Part shown: positions 2,792 through 45,405 of the stretch, piece after piece | Layout: each line of letters opens with the position of its first letter | Position numbering within the stretch: position 1 is the first letter of the stretch | NCBI RefSeq assembly: GCF_046105845.1 | Contig: NZ_CP151004.1 | DNA length: 64,000 nucleotides | DNA from: Escherichia coli | GTDB lineage: Bacteria; Pseudomonadota; Gammaproteobacteria; Enterobacterales; Enterobacteriaceae | Direction: 5' to 3' (one strand) | Position numbers and translations under genes: made by a program | Notes under the pieces: model-generated | Database searches by the model: none | Told to the model about the DNA's origin: nothing | The model's input: the letters and a program-made list of their open reading frames with translations, nothing else

Positions 2792-4387
<1,596 letters not shown>

Positions 4388-11166: not shown

Positions 11167-12060
11167 ATGAATATTGAACTTCGTCATCTGCGTTACTTTG
11201 TTGCTGTTGCGGAGGAGCTGCATTTCGGGCGCGCGGCTGCCCGCCTGAATATTTCGCAACCGCCGCTAAGTCAGCAGATTCAGGCACTGGAGCAACAAAT
11301 CGGTGCCCGACTGCTGGCACGGACCAATCGCAGTGTATTGCTGACGGCAGCAGGAAAACAGTTTCTTGCAGATAGTCGGCAAATCCTGTCTATGGTGGAT
11401 GACGCTGCCGCTCGCGCTGAAAGGCTGCATCAGGGCGAAGCGGGGGAGTTGCGCATTGGTTTTACTTCGTCCGCTCCTTTTATTCGGGCGGTGTCCGATA
11501 CGTTATCGCTGTTTCGCCGTGATTATCCCGATGTCCATTTACAAACCCGCGAAATGAACACTCGCGAGCAAATCGCTCCGCTCATTGAAGGAACGCTGGA
11601 TATGGGATTGCTGCGTAACACAGCGTTACCGGAGACGCTTGAACACGCAGTCATCGTCCATGAACCGCTTATGGCGATGATCCCGCACGATCATCCCCTG
11701 GCAAATAACCCGAATGTAACGCTGGCTGAACTGGCGAAAGAACCCTTTGTCTTTTTTGATCCGCACGTCGGGACAGGGTTGTATGACGATATTCTCGGAC
11801 TGATGCGACGTTACCATTTGACGCCCGTCATCACTCAGGAGGTGGGTGAGGCAATGACCATCATCGGTCTGGTTTCTGCCGGTCTGGGTGTTTCAATTTT
11901 GCCTGCGTCATTTAAACGTGTTCAGCTCAACGAAATGCGCTGGGTGCCGATTGCTGAAGAGGATGCGGTTTCTGAAATGTGGTTGGTCTGGCCGAAACAT
12001 CATGAACAAAGTCCGGCTGCGCGTAACTTTCGTATTCATCTGCTGAATGCTCTCAGGTGA
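11167..12060 (+). CDS. ynfL: LysR-family transcriptional regulator
   Basis: 297-aa protein with N-terminal wHTH (MNIELRHLRYFVAVAEELHFGRAAARLNISQPPLSQQIQALE) and LysR substrate-binding domain. Confidence 0.9.
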   Translation: MNIELRHLRYFVAVAEELHFGRAAARLNISQPPLSQQIQALEQQIGARLLARTNRSVLLTAAGKQFLADSRQILSMVDDAAARAERLHQGEAGELRIGFTSSAPFIRAVSDTLSLFRRDYPDVHLQTREMNTREQIAPLIEGTLDMGLLRNTALPETLEHAVIVHEPLMAMIPHDHPLANNPNVTLAELAKEPFVFFDPHVGTGLYDDILGLMRRYHLTPVITQEVGEAMTIIGLVSAGLGVSILPASFKRVQLNEMRWVPIAEEDAVSEMWLVWPKHHEQSPAARNFRIHLLNALR

Positions 12061-12159
12061 GGGAAATTTCAGCGAAAAAGCCCGAAAAATGTGCTGTTAA
12101 TCACATGCCTAAGTAAAAATTTGACGACACGTATTGAAGTGCTTCACCATAGCCTACAG

Positions 12160-12182
12160 ATTATTTCGGAGCGCGAAAATAT
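12160..12182. promoter_or_regulatory. Candidate Mlc operator (autoregulatory) upstream of mlc
   Basis: Near-palindrome ATTATTTCGgagcGCGAAAATAT ending 12 nt before the mlc GTG start; resembles Mlc/NagC-type operators as I recall them. Confidence 0.35.
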
Positions 12183-12194
12183 AGGGAGTATGCG

Positions 12195-13415
12195 GTGGTT
12201 GCTGAAAACCAGCCTGGGCACATTGATCAAATAAAGCAGACCAACGCGGGCGCGGTTTATCGCCTGATTGATCAGCTTGGTCCAGTCTCGCGTATCGATC
12301 TTTCCCGTCTGGCGCAGCTGGCTCCTGCCAGTATCACTAAAATTGTCCGTGAGATGCTCGAAGCACACCTGGTGCAAGAGCTGGAAATCAAAGAAGCGGG
12401 GAACCGTGGCCGTCCGGCAGTGGGGCTGGTGGTTGAAACTGAAGCCTGGCACTATCTTTCTCTGCGCATTAGTCGCGGGGAGATTTTCCTTGCTTTGCGC
12501 GATCTGAGCAGCAAACTGGTAGTGGAGGAGTCGCAGGAACTGGCGTTAAAAGATGACTCGCCATTGCTGGATCGTATCATTTCCCATATCGATCAGTTTT
12601 TTATCCGCCACCAGAAAAAACTTGAGCGTCTGACTTCGATTGCCATTACCTTGCCGGGAATTATTGATACGGAAAATGGTATTGTACATCGCATGCCGTT
12701 CTACGAGGATGTAAAAGAGATGCCGCTCGGCGAGGCGCTGGAGCAGCATACCGGCGTACCGGTTTATATTCAGCATGATATCAGCGCATGGACGATGGCT
12801 GAGGCCTTGTTTGGTGCCTCACGCGGGGCGCGCGATGTGATTCAGGTGGTTATCGATCACAACGTGGGGGCTGGCGTCATTACCGATGGTCATCTGCTAC
12901 ACGCAGGCAGCAGTAGCCTCGTGGAAATAGGCCACACACAGGTCGACCCGTATGGGAAACGCTGTTATTGCGGGAATCACGGTTGCCTCGAAACCATCGC
13001 CAGTGTGGACAGTATTCTTGAGCTGGCACAGCTGCGTCTCAATCAATCCATGAGCTCGATGTTACATGGACAACCGTTAACCGTGGACTCATTGTGTCAG
13101 GCGGCATTGCGCGGCGATCTACTGGCAAAAGACATCATTACCGGGGTAGGCGCGCATGTCGGTCGCATTCTTGCCATCATGGTGAATTTATTTAACCCAC
13201 AAAAAATACTGATTGGCTCACCGTTAAGTAAAGCGGCAGATATCCTCTTCCCAGTCATCTCGGACAGCATCCGTCAGCAGGCCCTTCCTGCGTATAGTCA
13301 GCACATTAGCGTTGAGAGTACTCAGTTTTCTAACCAGGGCACGATGGCAGGCGCTGCGCTGGTAAAAGACGCGATGTATAACGGTTCTTTGTTGATTCGT
13401 CTGTTGCAGGGTTAA
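12195..13415 (+). CDS. mlc: ROK-family global repressor Mlc (DgsA)
   Basis: 406-aa ORF with GTG start at 12195 (MVAENQPGHIDQIKQTNAGAVYRLIDQ...); ROK sugar-kinase-like fold with zinc motif HxxVDPYGKRCYCGNHGC; matches Mlc. Confidence 0.92.
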   Translation: MVAENQPGHIDQIKQTNAGAVYRLIDQLGPVSRIDLSRLAQLAPASITKIVREMLEAHLVQELEIKEAGNRGRPAVGLVVETEAWHYLSLRISRGEIFLALRDLSSKLVVEESQELALKDDSPLLDRIISHIDQFFIRHQKKLERLTSIAITLPGIIDTENGIVHRMPFYEDVKEMPLGEALEQHTGVPVYIQHDISAWTMAEALFGASRGARDVIQVVIDHNVGAGVITDGHLLHAGSSSLVEIGHTQVDPYGKRCYCGNHGCLETIASVDSILELAQLRLNQSMSSMLHGQPLTVDSLCQAALRGDLLAKDIITGVGAHVGRILAIMVNLFNPQKILIGSPLSKAADILFPVISDSIRQQALPAYSQHISVESTQFSNQGTMAGAALVKDAMYNGSLLIRLLQG

Positions 13416-25617: not shown

Positions 25618-26832
25618 ATGAATATCGTAAAGGCTGAAGTTTTTGTTACCTGTCCGGGGCGTAATTTCGTCACATTAAAAATCACCACTGAGGACGGTAT
25701 TACGGGCCTTGGGGATGCCACCCTCAATGGACGTGAGCTTTCCGTGGCCTCTTATTTGCAGGATCACCTTTGTCCGCAGCTTATTGGTCGCGATGCACAC
25801 CGTATCGAAGATATCTGGCAGTTTTTCTATAAAGGAGCTTACTGGCGTCGCGGCCCGGTGACGATGTCGGCCATTTCAGCGGTTGATATGGCGCTGTGGG
25901 ATATTAAAGCCAAAGCTGCCAACATGCCGCTTTACCAGTTACTCGGCGGCGCGTCTCGTGAAGGGGTGATGGTTTATTGCCATACCACCGGTCACAGTAT
26001 TGATGAAGCTCTGGATGATTATGCCCGTCATCAGGAGCTGGGATTCAAAGCCATCCGCGTGCAGTGCGGAATCCCTGGTATGAAAACCACCTACGGCATG
26101 TCGAAAGGTAAAGGTCTGGCTTATGAACCCGCAACCAAAGGACAGTGGCCGGAAGAGCAGCTGTGGTCGACGGAGAAATACCTCGATTTCATGCCGAAAT
26201 TGTTTGACGCGGTACGTAACAAGTTTGGTTTTAATGAACATTTGCTGCATGACATGCACCATCGCTTAACGCCTATTGAAGCGGCGCGCTTTGGTAAAAG
26301 CATTGAAGATTATCGCATGTTCTGGATGGAAGACCCGACGCCTGCGGAAAACCAGGAATGCTTCCGTCTCATTCGCCAACATACCGTCACACCCATCGCG
26401 GTGGGTGAAGTCTTCAACAGCATCTGGGACTGCAAGCAACTGATTGAAGAGCAACTTATCGATTATATCCGCACTACGCTGACCCACGCGGGTGGCATTA
26501 CCGGTATGCGCCGGATTGCCGATTTTGCTTCGCTGTATCAGGTACGTACTGGCTCACACGGTCCTTCCGATTTGTCACCAGTCTGCATGGCTGCGGCGCT
26601 GCACTTTGATCTGTGGGTCCCCAATTTCGGTGTCCAGGAATACATGGGTTATTCCGAACAAATGCTCGAAGTCTTCCCGCACAACTGGACTTTCGATAAC
26701 GGCTATATGCATCCGGGAGACAAACCGGGTCTTGGCATCGAATTCGATGAAAAGCTGGCGGCGAAATATCCCTATGAACCTGCTTATCTGCCAGTCGCAC
26801 GTCTGGAAGATGGCACGCTGTGGAACTGGTAA
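25618..26832 (+). CDS. rspA: Starvation-sensing protein RspA (enolase-superfamily mannonate/altronate dehydratase-like)
   Basis: Start trimmed to ATG 25618 ([40 protein letters not shown]...), AAGGA RBS, 404 aa. ORF track begins at 25585. Confidence 0.92.
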
Positions 26833-29376: not shown

Positions 29377-30837
29377 ATGGGAAATAATTTGTTATCAGCA
29401 AAAGCGACACTCCCTGTTTATGATCGTAATAACCTGGCCCCAAGAATTGTTCATTTAGGCTTTGGTGCATTTCACCGTGCGCATCAGGGCGTGTATGCCG
29501 ATATTCTTGCTACGGAACATTTCAGTGAATGGGGATATTATGAGGTCAACTTAATCGGCGGCGAACAGCAAATTGCCGATTTACAACAGCAAGATAATCT
29601 TTATACCGTTGCGGAAATGTCGGCCGATGCGTGGACGGCTCGCGTCGTTGGCGTCGTTAAAAAAGCCTTGCACGTACAGATTGATGGCTTAGAAACCGTG
29701 TTGGCTGCGATGTGTGAACCGCAAATCGCGATTGTCTCTCTGACAATCACCGAAAAAGGGTATTTCCACTCTCCGGCGACCGGACAGTTAATGCTCGATC
29801 ACCCGATGGTCGTTGCCGACGTACAAAATCCCCACCAGCCGAAAACTGCAACAGGGGTGATTGTCGAGGCGCTGGCTCGCCGTAAAGCGGCAGGACTTCC
29901 CGCATTTACCGTCATGTCATGTGACAACATGCCAGAAAACGGTCATGTTATGCGTGACGTTGTCACTTCCTACGCGCAAGCCGTTGATGTAAAACTGGCA
30001 CAATGGATCGAAGATAACGTGACTTTCCCATCAACAATGGTAGACCGTATTGTGCCCGCAGTGACAGAGGATACGCTGGCGAAAATCGAACAACTTACCG
30101 GTGTGCGCGATCCTGCTGGCGTTGCCTGTGAACCTTTCCGCCAGTGGGTAATAGAAGATAATTTTGTTGCCGGACGTCCGGAATGGGAAAAAGCGGGAGC
30201 CGAACTGGTTAGTGATGTGCTGCCTTATGAAGAGATGAAGTTGCGCATGCTCAACGGCAGTCATTCATTCCTGGCGTATCTGGGTTATCTTGCTGGATAT
30301 CAGCACATTAATGACTGTATGGAAGATGAACATTATCGTCATGCGGCATATGCCTTGATGTTGCAGGAACAAGCGCCGACGCTGAAAGTGCAGGGTGTTG
30401 ATTTGCAAGATTACGCTAACCGATTAATTGAACGCTATAGCAACCCGGCGCTACGTCATCGAACCTGGCAGATTGCGATGGATGGCAGCCAGAAATTGCC
30501 ACAGCGGATGTTGGATTCTGTTCGCTGGCATCTGGCGCATGACAGCAAGTTCGATCTGCTGGCGCTGGGCGTCGCAGGTTGGATGCGTTATGTCGGTGGT
30601 GTTGATGAACAGGGAAATCCGATAGAAATCAGTGACCCACTGTTACCTGTTATTCAGAAGGCTGTACAAAGTAGTGCCGAAGGGAAAGCGCGCGTCCAGT
30701 CATTGCTGGCGATTAAGGCGATCTTTGGTGATGATTTGCCAGACAATAGCTTGTTTACTGCAAAAGTGACGGAAGCGTACTTGTCTTTATTAGCGCATGG
30801 TGCGAAAGCGACCGTGGCGAAATATTCCGTGAAGTAA
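29377..30837 (+). CDS. ydfI: Mannitol dehydrogenase-family oxidoreductase
   Basis: 486-aa ORF with N-terminal NAD-binding region ([15 protein letters not shown]); long-chain mannitol dehydrogenase family. Confidence 0.9.
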
Positions 30838-30865
30838 AAAAAGCAATGCCGCCATCGGCGGCATT
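30835..30865 (-). terminator. Intrinsic terminator downstream of ydfZ
   Basis: Stem AATGCCGCC-atc-GGCGGCATT located 8 nt past the ydfZ stop; on the minus strand it is followed by a U-run (plus-strand AAAAAAA at 30836-30842). Confidence 0.65.
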
Positions 30866-36974: not shown

Positions 36975-37001
36975 ACCGCCGGTTTACTGGCGGTTTTTTT
37001 T
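36975..37001 (+). terminator. Intrinsic terminator downstream of dgcZ
   Basis: Stem ACCGCCGG / CTGGCGGT (loop TTTA) followed by TTTTTTT at 36995-37001. Confidence 0.7.
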
Positions 37002-37007
37002 CGCCGT

Positions 37008-37049
37008 CATAAAAATCAGGCCCCTTGTACACAACTGTAACAAGGGGCC
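37008..37049 (-). terminator. Intrinsic terminator downstream of mgtS
   Basis: Perfect 10-bp inverted repeat GGCCCCTTGT-(11 nt)-ACAAGGGGCC; on the minus strand it is followed by UGAUUUUUAUG. Confidence 0.65.
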
Positions 37050-38680: not shown

Positions 38681-39580
38681 ATGTCGCGAAAAGATGGGGT
38701 GTTGGCGCTACTGGTAGTGGTCGTATGGGGGCTAAATTTTGTGGTCATCAAAGTGGGGCTTCATAACATGCCACCGCTGATGCTGGCCGGTTTGCGCTTT
38801 ATGCTGGTTGCTTTTCCGGCTATCTTTTTTGTCGCACGACCGAAAGTACCACTGAATTTGCTGCTGGGGTATGGATTAACCATCAGTTTTGCGCAGTTTG
38901 CTTTTCTTTTTTGTGCCATTAACTTCGGTATGCCTGCTGGTCTGGCTTCGTTGGTGTTACAGGCACAGGCGTTTTTTACTATCGTGCTTGGCGCGTTTAC
39001 TTTCGGTGAGCGACTGCATGGCAAACAATTGGCGGGGATCGCCTTAGCGATTTTTGGCGTACTGGTGTTAATCGAAGATAGTCTGAACGGTCAGCATGTG
39101 GCGATGCTCGGCTTTATGTTGACCCTGGCGGCAGCATTTAGTTGGGCGTGTGGCAACATCTTCAATAAAAAGATCATGTCGCACTCAACGCGTCCGGCGG
39201 TGATGTCGCTGGTAATCTGGAGCGCATTAATCCCAATCATTCCCTTCTTTGTTGCCTCGCTGATTCTCGATGGTTCCGCAACCATGATTCACAGTCTGGT
39301 TACTATCGATATGACCACCATCTTGTCTCTGATGTATCTGGCGTTTGTGGCGACAATTGTTGGTTATGGGATCTGGGGGACGTTACTGGGACGCTATGAA
39401 ACCTGGCGGGTTGCACCGTTATCGTTACTGGTGCCCGTAGTAGGACTGGCAAGTGCGGCACTATTGTTGGATGAACGCTTAACGGGTCTACAATTTTTCG
39501 GGGCGGTGCTCATTATGACCGGGCTGTATATCAATGTATTTGGCTTGCGGTGGCGTAAAGCGGTAAAGGTTAGAGGCTAA
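38681..39580 (+). CDS. eamA: DMT-family cysteine/O-acetylserine exporter
   Basis: Start trimmed to ATG 38681 (MSRKDGVLALLVVVVWGLNFVVIKVGL...), 299 aa, two EamA repeats. ORF track begins at 38660. Confidence 0.9.
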   Translation: MSRKDGVLALLVVVVWGLNFVVIKVGLHNMPPLMLAGLRFMLVAFPAIFFVARPKVPLNLLLGYGLTISFAQFAFLFCAINFGMPAGLASLVLQAQAFFTIVLGAFTFGERLHGKQLAGIALAIFGVLVLIEDSLNGQHVAMLGFMLTLAAAFSWACGNIFNKKIMSHSTRPAVMSLVIWSALIPIIPFFVASLILDGSATMIHSLVTIDMTTILSLMYLAFVATIVGYGIWGTLLGRYETWRVAPLSLLVPVVGLASAALLLDERLTGLQFFGAVLIMTGLYINVFGLRWRKAVKVRG

Positions 39581-39585
39581 ACCAT

Positions 39586-39629
39586 ACGCACAGAATGTGA
39601 TGTCAGCACTCTGTGCGTCTGCTTTTATC
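39586..39629 (+). terminator. Intrinsic terminator after eamA
   Basis: 9-bp stem ACGCACAGA / TCTGTGCGT (15-nt loop) followed by CTGCTTTTATC; the stop codon of the downstream minus-strand regulator lies inside the U-tract. Confidence 0.6.
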
Positions 39630-40323
39630 GCGGGAAAAAGTACTTTACCTGGAACTCGAAAATATTGCTGTAAAGTAACGAATAATCCAGCGGAATAGAG
39701 TTACTATCCACAGCCTGGGTCTGAATTTTAAGTATGGGATCCCGTGGGCTGATCCGTAAAATACTGGCGATTTCTGGGGTAGGAAAAGTAGGGGAGAAAG
39801 TTTCAAAGGTGCCAATGATTTTGATCCCGCATTCGTTCTCAATATACGAAAATTTGGATTTTTGCATATGTGCTACGGTTAAATCAGGAAAACGTGCCAC
39901 TGACATCCACGTTTCTTCTAATTGTGCTGCATTATCCTCAATGAATCGCAGTCTCTTTATGTAATAAACCTGCTCACCAGTCACTAAATTCAGCTCAGTC
40001 GCAATAGGGGGAGAAGCATCCTGCACTTCAAATTTCATAATCTGACTTCCTGCCTCCTTGCCGCTTTTATGCGCAATTTCACTGAAGCTGTTCATGTGAT
40101 CAATGTGTGCAACAAAATTCTTTTTTTGAATGTATGTTCCTGAACCATGCTTTCTATGAATAACTCCTTCGCCTTCCAGCAAGGATAATGCCTTACGCAG
40201 GGTATTACGCGAAACATTATAACGAACAGCGAGTTCAGCTTCTGACGGCAACAAATCACCAACATGCCATGAATAGCCATTGATCTCGGATTTAAGTAAG
40301 CGGGCAATCTTTTGAAAAATCAC
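39625..40323 (-). CDS. bgcR: GntR/HutC-family transcriptional regulator (wHTH + UTRA effector domain), divergent from the PTS operon
   Basis: 232-aa ORF with GTG start; N-terminal GntR HTH (LPSEAELAVRYNVSRNTLRKALSLLEGEGVIHRKHGSGTYI) and HutC-type C-terminal domain. Symbol assigned by architecture match to the bgc locus, not sequence-verified. Confidence 0.8.
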   Translation of the reverse strand: MIFQKIARLLKSEINGYSWHVGDLLPSEAELAVRYNVSRNTLRKALSLLEGEGVIHRKHGSGTYIQKKNFVAHIDHMNSFSEIAHKSGKEAGSQIMKFEVQDASPPIATELNLVTGEQVYYIKRLRFIEDNAAQLEETWMSVARFPDLTVAHMQKSKFSYIENECGIKIIGTFETFSPTFPTPEIASILRISPRDPILKIQTQAVDSNSIPLDYSLLYSNIFEFQVKYFFPR

Positions 40324-40482
40324 TTTTGCACCTTTTAAGAGCCATTGAAAACAAGGGGTTGAGTCCTGATTGGTTTATCGTATGGCCGAGTCGTTTAATT
40401 ATTACCCTGATGTTGAACAACTTTATTGCTGTATTACTGTGATCAATGTACCAGGACGTATAGCTACTGCGGGATATGATAT

Positions 40483-40495
40483 TTACACAATGTAA
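40483..40495. promoter_or_regulatory. Candidate operator palindrome in the regulator/PTS divergent promoter region
   Basis: Perfect palindrome TTACA-caa-TGTAA 27 bp upstream of the EIIB start codon; a CRP-like half-site (TGTGA at 40438-40442) lies about 45 bp further upstream. Confidence 0.3.
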
Positions 40496-40521
40496 TCTGT
40501 TATATACCAGTAAGGGAAAAT

Positions 40522-40833
40522 ATGAAAAAGATATTGTTAGTTTGCGCTGCGGGCATGTCAACCAGTATGCTGGTTAAACGTATGATTGATCATGCTAACG
40601 CTATTTCACTTGAAGTTAATATTTCCGCATTGGCGATTGCAGAGGCTAAAGGGAAAATTAAAAATAACGAAGTTGACGTTGTTTTACTTGGCCCGCAAGT
40701 TCGCTTTCAGAAACCAGAGATTGAAGCTGTTGCACAGGGGAAAATGCCTGTAGCTGTTATCGAGATGAAAGACTATGGCACCATGAACGGACAGGCAGTT
40801 CTTGAATTTGCGATGAAACTACTGCAAGAGTAA
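40522..40833 (+). CDS. bgcE: PTS EIIB component, lactose/cellobiose family
   Basis: 103-aa ORF MKKILLVCAAGMSTSMLVKRM... with phosphorylatable Cys in LVCAAGMSTS; AAGGGA RBS. Symbol by architecture match to bgcEFIHA. Confidence 0.85.
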   Translation: MKKILLVCAAGMSTSMLVKRMIDHANAISLEVNISALAIAEAKGKIKNNEVDVVLLGPQVRFQKPEIEAVAQGKMPVAVIEMKDYGTMNGQAVLEFAMKLLQE

Positions 40834-40947
40834 GAATCTAATATTATTAAACTATTACCTGAACTAACTTTTCACACATCATAAAATGGATATGGCATAC
40901 ATGCTTTATTGGGATGTATAAATATCCAGAACAGCAGGTATAAAAAA

Positions 40948-41819
40948 ATGGGATTAATGGCCTCATTCGAACGTGGAATGGAACGTTTTCTTGTTCCAGT
41001 TGCTATCAAGTTAAACTCACAAAAACATGTTGCAGCGGTGAGAGATGGATTCGTTTTTACGTTTCCAATTATTATGGCAAGTTCATTAATTATATTAATT
41101 AATTTTGCCATATTATCGCCAGACGGTTTTATTGCCGGATTACTGCATCTGAATAGCATTTTCCCCAACCTTGAAAAAGCACAAGCTATTTTTACTCCGG
41201 TAATGAATGGTTCTGTAAATATCATGTCAATTATGATTGCTTTCCTGGTCGCCAGGAATATGGCGATTAGCTATGAGCAAGATGATCTTTTATGCGGATT
41301 AACGGCAATAGGAGCATTTTTTATTGTTGGGCCGCTCAACACGGCACTACCTGGGGCGCGCCATATCCGATTACCTGGACTTCTATTAATGATGCATTCG
41401 CCAACTGCGGCGGTTCAGGTATGACGTTGGGGTTATTGTTGGCTATTTTTATCGCTTCTAAGCGTGCGGAATACCGTGATCTGGCAAAAATGTCATTTAT
41501 CCCCGGTATTTTCAATATCAATGAACCGATAATGTTCGGCCTTCCTATTGTACTTAACCCCATCATGATGGTGCCGTTTATTCTGGTTCCCATTGTTAAC
41601 TGTGCCATTGGTTACTTCTTTGTTTCGATGGAAATTATTCCACCGGTTGCTTATGCCGTGCCCTGGACTACGCCCGGACCTTTAATTGCTTTCCTCGGAA
41701 CCGGGGGAAACTGGCTGGCGTTACTGGTGGGTTTTTTATGTTTAGGTGTGGCGACAATGATCTATTTACCTTTTGTTATTGCCGCCAACAAGGTCAATAA
41801 CATGACAACTAACGGATAA
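40948..41819 (+). pseudogene. bgcF: PTS EIIC component (lactose/cellobiose family) disrupted by an out-of-frame internal deletion
   Basis: ORF-track pieces 40909-41424 and 41292-41819 align to the N-terminal ~130 and C-terminal ~160 residues of ChbC-type EIIC in different frames. Total span ~290 codons versus ~440-450 for intact EIIC; frame switch near 41333-41337. Confidence 0.75.
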
Positions 41820-41846
41820 TCCCATTTACACAGGAAGGAGATGTTG

Positions 41847-42158
41847 ATGTTTGCAGATGAAGAACTTGTTATGGAGTTACTGGTCAACGCAGGACAGGCT
41901 CGTTCTGATGCGATGGAAGCCATACGTTGTGCCGGGCAAAAAGACTGGCAGGGCGCAACTCAGCTAATGGCCAGTTCTGAATGCGCCTGTCTTCAGGCGC
42001 ATAAGATTCAGACCGCGTTAATTAGTCAGGATGAAGGCTGTGGCAAAATAGAAGTTAATTTAATTCTGGTTCATGCACAGGATCATTTGATGAATGCAAT
42101 ATTATGCCAGGATTTAGCCAGGGAAATTATTTCATTAAGAAAAGAGCTCCATGCCTGA
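41847..42158 (+). CDS. bgcI: PTS EIIA component, lactose/cellobiose family
   Basis: ChbA-like sequence (...EELVMELLVNAGQARSDAMEAIR...LILVHAQDHLMNA...); start placed at ATG 41847 because GGAAGGAG abuts the track start at 41841. Confidence 0.85.
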   Translation: MFADEELVMELLVNAGQARSDAMEAIRCAGQKDWQGATQLMASSECACLQAHKIQTALISQDEGCGKIEVNLILVHAQDHLMNAILCQDLAREIISLRKELHA

Positions 42159-42161
42159 TTT

Positions 42162-42189
42162 TTTCCTCCAGTGCGATAGCTGGAGGAAA
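42162..42189 (+). other. Intergenic hairpin between the EIIA and porin genes
   Basis: 10-bp inverted repeat TTTCCTCCAG-tgcgatag-CTGGAGGAAA immediately after the EIIA stop and 25 nt before the porin start; no U-tract follows. Confidence 0.4.
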
Positions 42190-42210
42190 TTATTACACTC
42201 TTAAGGATAA

Positions 42211-45349
<3,139 letters not shown>

Positions 45350-45375
45350 GACTTCAGGAAGATATTACGGAGATA

Positions 45376-45399
45376 TCAGGCTCTGTGATCAGAGCCTGA
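45376..45399. terminator. Strong hairpin between the GH1 gene and marB (terminator-like)
   Basis: Perfect 10-bp inverted repeat TCAGGCTCTG-tgat-CAGAGCCTGA; 6 nt from the marB stop; no clear U-tract on either strand. Confidence 0.4.
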
Positions 45400-45405
45400 C
45401 AATAA

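Follow-up and report, generated by a model that had tools for sequence, protein, structure and literature searches.

The mlc locus and its leader

A candidate Mlc operator lies just upstream of mlc in the stretch of Escherichia coli chromosomal DNA analysed here (64 kb, referred to as the window). This raises the question of whether the site is the operator through which Mlc represses its own gene, or whether its likeness to Mlc operators has another explanation. The window region corresponds to ynfM–ynfL–mlc–bioD–clcB of E. coli, and the best-matching strain has the gene order asr, ynfM, ynfL, mlc, bioD, clcB. As ynfL ends at 12060 and mlc starts at 12195, positions 12061-12194 are exactly the ynfL-mlc intergenic region, 134 bp in length (Table 1). 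A 601-bp segment around the site found matches in 5,421 of the 5,426 complete E. coli genomes. Identity reached ≥99% in 5,196 of these, and ynfL and mlc were the features annotated beneath the matches (5,421 genomes). The identity of the downstream gene is clear from its 406-aa product, which passed the cut-off of 530 for the NCBIfam equivalog 'sugar metabolism global transcriptional regulator Mlc' with 741 bits and scored 418 bits against the NagC model, under the NagC cut-off of 650.

Table 1. Features of the mlc leader and its flanking genes, with positions in the window. Promoter elements and start points are putative; values in bits are mean column entropies in orthologs.
Feature	Position	Strand	Basis
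ynfL, LysR-family regulator	11167-12060	+	Upstream neighbour, bounds the mlc leader
CRP-cAMP site TGTGCTGTTAATCACA, TGTGC-N6-TCACA, centre 12097.5	12090-12105	.	Consensus at 9/10 half-site bases
P1 -35, TTGACG	12121-12126	+	Assigned by spacing, 18 nt to CACCAT; invariant in 81 leaders, 0.03 bits
P2 -35, TTGAAG, sigma70/sigma32 type	12134-12139	+	Putative; conserved
P1 weak -10, CACCAT, start ~12156-12157	12145-12150	+	Putative; within conserved block 12133-12154
P2 -10, CAGATT, start ~12168-12169	12157-12162	+	Putative, 17-nt spacing; 3' end overlaps operator; stretch partly conserved
Highly probable Mlc operator, 23-bp quasi-palindrome, centre 12171: ATTATTTCGGAGCGCGAAAATAT	12160-12182	.	Operator rules, PWM rank, ortholog conservation
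Shine-Dalgarno AGGGAG of mlc	12183-12188	+	6 nt before GTG; 0.10 bits
mlc CDS	12195-13415	+	GTG start, 406 aa; GTG at aligned start in all 81 orthologous sequences

The preliminary description had read ATTATTTCGGAGCGCGAAAATAT, at 12160-12182, as a near-perfect inverted repeat directly before the mlc ribosome-binding site and GTG start. Sequence and coordinates proved exact on the + strand, as did the placement: the site ends 1 nt before AGGGAG and 12 nt before the GTG at 12195, and its centre lies 24 nt upstream of this GTG. The symmetry, on the other hand, was overstated, with complementary pairs around 12171 at 7 of 11 positions and exact arms of only 5 nt (TTTCG-N5-CGAAA). A repeat search of the region with 6-nt seeds did not report the dyad, as its exact arms are too short. 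Equally or more symmetric 23-mers occurred at 559 of the 63,978 positions in the window (0.87%), and about one dyad of 7/11 is expected per 112 positions, where two were found in the mlc leader (at 12160 and 12061). Dyad symmetry was rejected as evidence for an operator on account of this chance-level frequency. The near-perfect palindrome, which was the ground given for the earlier reading, is thus the weakest element of the evidence.

The second 7/11 dyad of the intergenic region, GGGAAATTTCAGCGAAAAAGCCC at 12061-12083, lies right after the ynfL stop codon. The area around it is poorly conserved among Enterobacteriaceae, and no terminator-like site was found there in the scan.

Elsewhere in the window, a segment of 5.8 kb between marB and eamA (39571-45403) is missing from strain PCN033, which is collinear in other respects, and occurs in 2,493 of the 5,426 complete E. 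coli genomes when ≥80% coverage is required. Its annotations include PTS IIA, IIB and IIC components of the lactose/cellobiose family, a 6-phospho-beta-glucosidase, a carbohydrate porin and a GntR regulator. Because of its patchy presence and these sugar-gene annotations, we call this segment a variable sugar-utilisation island.

Fit to Mlc and NagC operator sequences

The quasi-palindromes bound by Mlc and by NagC resemble each other, and TT and AA at ∓5,6 are their sole fully conserved positions (PMC4288165). They differ at ±11, which is A/T in Mlc sites and C/G in high-affinity NagC sites (PMC4288165). The sequence criteria for Mlc operators used here, including the 23-bp quasi-palindrome and AT-rich positions ±7-11, were taken from PMC4288165 and PMC1874608. 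The mlc site agrees with each of them: TT is found at 12165-12166 (-6,-5) and AA at 12176-12177 (+5,+6), in accordance with TT-N9-AA; all ten of the positions ±7-11 are A/T, in an imperfect dyad of 7/11; and the outermost positions are A at 12160 (-11) and T at 12182 (+11). The bare rule in IUPAC code matched the window three times where 1.2 matches were expected, an excess that is not significant, and this loose rule was rejected as sole evidence.

Weight matrices gave a sharper picture. A matrix built from positions -10 to +10 of ten published NagC operators (PMC3098098, Table 1), and hence independent of the candidate, ranked the mlc site first among the 63,978 window positions. A 15-site matrix of these ten NagC sites and five rule-derived Mlc sites also placed it first, at a score for which 0.06 sites are expected per 64 kb, or ~1e-4 per leader. 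The motif information of the Mlc sites by themselves is low, as the five-site Mlc matrix gave the candidate third place within the window, and an equal or better site was present in 32-40% of 64-kb windows after shuffling. With the candidate only third, this matrix alone was rejected as too weak. The signal that rises above chance is therefore the fit to the Mlc/NagC operator model and not the dyad symmetry.

Three further positions in the window scored highly with the Mlc/NagC matrices: GTAATTTCGTCACATTAAAAATC at 25661-25683, which lies 43 nt into rspA and is NagC-like with G/C at ±11; AAATATTCCGTGAAGTAAAAAAA at 30820-30842, at the ydfI stop; and TTTTTTTTCGCCGTCATAAAAAT at 36994-37016, within mgtT and downstream of dgcZ. 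These are probably chance matches, their number being about that found in shuffled sequence. Applying the operator rule to the mlc leader revealed no second Mlc site with which the first could form a loop. A match to the rule within mlc, ATTTATTTAACCCACAAAAAATA at 13186-13208 (encoding NLFNPQKI), was dismissed as a chance match that undergoes synonymous drift. It serves as a neutral control, in which only 35 of 80 orthologs retained at least nine A/T positions in the arms.

As the preliminary description had proposed, the site was compared with the operators of ptsG, manX and malT, and it does resemble the sites that the rule recovered from K-12. When applied to the K-12 regions upstream of Mlc targets, the operator rule yielded sites at ptsG (two), manX, malT and ptsH; the five Mlc sites used for comparison are thus rule-derived rather than taken from a published table. 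The ptsH site (ATTATTTTGATGCGCGAAATTAA, positions 3503-3525 of K-12 locus L005) is identical to the mlc operator at 18 of 23 positions, including the central GCGCG. Identity with the malT, manX and ptsG sites is 13-15 of 23, so that the mlc and ptsH sites are far more alike than either is to those of ptsG, manX or malT. The idea that the mlc promoter and ptsH P0 are homologous over a longer stretch was considered and rejected, as the likeness is essentially that of the operator and fades outside it.

The operators of the Mlc regulon (ptsG, ptsHI P0, manXYZ, malT and mlc) have in common the 23-bp quasi-palindrome, TT-N9-AA, AT-rich arms and A/T at ±11. They are placed over or near the transcription start, as the mlc site would be relative to its putative starts. 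Unlike the mlc leader, with its one site, ptsG and Salmonella hilE P3 have two Mlc sites each, those of hilE being 98 nt apart (PMC1874608). NagC operators (nagE-nagB, chbB, glmU, fimB, galP and the distal site of manX) have the length, register and TT/AA core of the mlc site, and the helix-turn-helix motifs of the paralogous repressors NagC and Mlc are almost identical (PMC4288165, PMC3098098). High-affinity NagC sites nevertheless have G/C at ±11, where the mlc site and all 81 orthologous copies have A/T; in the ten published NagC sites, G/C occupies 16 of the 20 ±11 positions (PMC3098098).

Putative promoter elements and CRP-cAMP site of mlc

Repression of mlc by Mlc, its two promoters and an Mlc site in the promoter have been reported, with P2 recognised by both Eσ32 and Eσ70 and P1 by Eσ70 only (PMC2634768, PMC4393010). 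The mlc promoter is weak, with a -10 element far from consensus (PMC2634768), and the mlc promoters are under CRP-cAMP control (PMC2238713). Mlc leaves the DNA when it is sequestered by unphosphorylated EIICB-Glc (PMC1874608).

A scan of the leader for consensus sigma70 promoters and terminators found nothing, as expected for so weak a promoter. The promoter elements in Table 1 were read from spacing and conservation, and the hexamers, the start points and hence any steric mechanism are inferred. The sigma32 -35 consensus is TTGAAA, which the TTGAAG of P2 resembles. The match to TGTG-N7-TCACA at 12090-12105 is the only one in the 64-kb window and is conserved in the 81 leaders (0.24 bits); its centre would lie at -71.5 from the putative P2 start, a class I distance. 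Relative to the putative starts, the operator would extend from about -9 to +14 of P2 and from about +4 to +26 of P1.

Decker et al. (1998) and Shin et al. (2001) are said to have mapped the Mlc site of mlc. Shin et al. reportedly placed P1 at +1, P2 at +13 and the Mlc site at +16, with CRP stimulating P2 and inhibiting P1. The operator centre, at 12171, falls at +15 of a P1 start at ~12157 and so within 1 nt of the reported '+16'. On the strength of this geometry, the site is very probably the footprinted one. A full-text literature search for the operator core TTTCGGAGCGCGAAA returned no paper, and searches for the two mlc promoters and for Mlc ChIP data yielded nothing relevant.

Conservation among Enterobacteriaceae

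To follow the site across species, representative genomes were scanned with the Mlc protein. This gave 80 loci at 85-99% protein identity from Escherichia, Citrobacter, Salmonella, Enterobacter, Klebsiella, Raoultella, Kosakonia, Leclercia, Kluyvera and other genera, and together with the window a set of 81 leaders, all distinct in their upstream sequence. Every one of the 81 contained a site that agrees with the three operator rules and is centred 23-25 nt upstream of the GTG. TT/AA and positions -10 to -3 and +5 to +7 were invariant, and the arms at ±7-11 were A/T throughout. At the outermost positions, -11 was A in 29 and T in 52 leaders and +11 was A in 74 and T in 7, with no G or C among the 162 bases. 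Some leaders had lost one base from the centre of the site, and in these the TT-N9-AA register was kept by means of an extra A.

The mean column entropy was 0.22 bits for the operator (12160-12182) and 0.17 bits for its core from -10 to +10. The corresponding values were 1.09 bits for third positions of mlc codons 2-120, 1.32 bits for the end of ynfL and the spacer and 1.60 bits for the spacer at 12127-12132. The whole 110-bp promoter and leader is conserved in blocks, comprising the CRP site, TTGACG and TTGAAG...CACCAT, and conservation therefore does not single the operator out from other promoter functions. Promoter or leader function may account for part of the conservation seen in the operator. 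What the present analysis adds is that all 81 leaders examined retain the site, its spacing from the GTG and, at ±11, the A/T that is specific to Mlc.

Alternative explanations for the site

Could the likeness to Mlc operators have arisen by chance, in a weakly symmetric AT-rich stretch of core promoter, P2 initial transcribed region or leader that contains no dedicated operator? The chance-level dyad symmetry and the three loose-rule matches against 1.2 expected would fit such an origin, as would the conservation of the flanking promoter blocks, which is as strong as that of the operator, and the low information of the matrices, by which 64 kb would contain 0.4-0.6 sites as good as this one. 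We nevertheless consider it very unlikely: the probability of so good a site within the 112-position leader is 1e-4 to 1e-3, and variation among orthologs follows the Mlc rules, with only A or T at ±11 and the register kept despite the central deletion. In addition, the mlc and ptsH sites share 18 of 23 bases, and an Mlc site in the mlc promoter is stated in the literature (PMC2634768, PMC4393010). An operator for the paralogue NagC instead of Mlc, which would link mlc expression to the availability of N-acetylglucosamine, is improbable in the extreme. The base pair at ±11 speaks against it, being A and T in the candidate and never G/C in the 81 leaders (0/162), as opposed to G/C at 16 of 20 positions in NagC sites; the G/C that marks a NagC operator was found in none of the leaders. 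Cross-regulation is also reported to be absent at physiological protein levels (PMC4288165), and repression of mlc has been ascribed to Mlc (PMC2634768, PMC4393010, PMC2238713). These observations stand against three points in favour of NagC, namely that the logos of the two proteins are described as essentially indistinguishable (PMC4288165), that no other site in the window scores as well as the candidate with the NagC-only matrix and that overproduced NagC is able to repress Mlc targets (PMC4288165).

The site would also be transcribed from the putative P1 and abuts the ribosome-binding site, and the minimum free energy fold of 12156-12215 contains exactly the 5-bp UUUCG/CGAAA stem. A UUUCG-N5-CGAAA hairpin beside the Shine-Dalgarno sequence might modulate how stable the mlc mRNA is or how well it is translated, and binding of Mlc to the DNA would then be incidental. 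This reading has hardly any likelihood, as the leader folds no better than shuffled sequences (z = 0.14; 100 of 200 shuffles at least equal) and the 81 leaders show no compensatory change: stem columns -7 to -3 are invariant, the few changes at +3 and +4 are one-sided, and the outer ±11 pair is A-T, T-A or A-A without covariation. A P2 transcript from ~12169 would lack the left arm altogether. A search of the leader against Rfam gave no hit at E ≤ 1, and the marks of a structured cis-regulatory RNA (a fold beyond that of shuffles, covariation, an Rfam match) were all absent. It is likewise unlikely that the site is an operator with an additional role at the RNA level, in which the P1 mRNA would contain the full hairpin and the P2 mRNA, with its start at ~12169, would be missing the left arm. 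The central CG(A/G)AGC(G/T)CG is near-invariant though the Mlc/NagC consensus does not require it, and this would fit such an extra constraint. If true, the P1 mRNA and the sigma32/CRP-dependent P2 mRNA could differ in translation or stability.

Autoregulation of mlc

Taken together, the agreement with all sequence criteria, the likeness to the ptsH site and the conservation in 81 of 81 leaders bear out the earlier reading of an Mlc-type autoregulatory operator. We conclude with high confidence, on sequence grounds, that mlc has its autoregulatory operator at 12160-12182. Judging by its sequence, this is almost certainly the one that belongs to mlc among the six native Mlc sites mentioned in PMC4288165. 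The Mlc autoregulatory operator of mlc is already known and its regulation is textbook knowledge; what can be said in addition is that a reader was able to recognise it from the sequence alone. Autoregulation of mlc was established around 1998-2001.

In the mechanism that we propose, Mlc would bind the 23-bp quasi-palindrome; this repressor of the ROK family has a winged helix-turn-helix, and its linker recognises A/T at ±11. As the operator lies over the putative P2 start and downstream of P1, bound Mlc would occlude P2 from RNA polymerase and block its escape from P1. Autorepression would thereby hold Mlc at a low, self-limited level. During glucose transport, dephosphorylated EIICB-Glc (PtsG) sequesters Mlc at the membrane and the operator would be vacated; CRP-cAMP, bound at 12090-12105, and sigma32 would modulate the same mlc promoters. 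The arrangement is similar to that of other negatively autoregulated global sugar regulators with CRP input, such as crp, in which the repressor binds over its own promoter or immediately beyond it and CRP-cAMP acts on the same region. However, Mlc belongs to a different protein family, and it is inactivated by membrane sequestration through EIICB-Glc instead of by a small-molecule ligand. Negative autoregulation of mlc keeps the repressor scarce enough to be titrated by PtsG, and E. coli induces its glucose uptake genes in this way.
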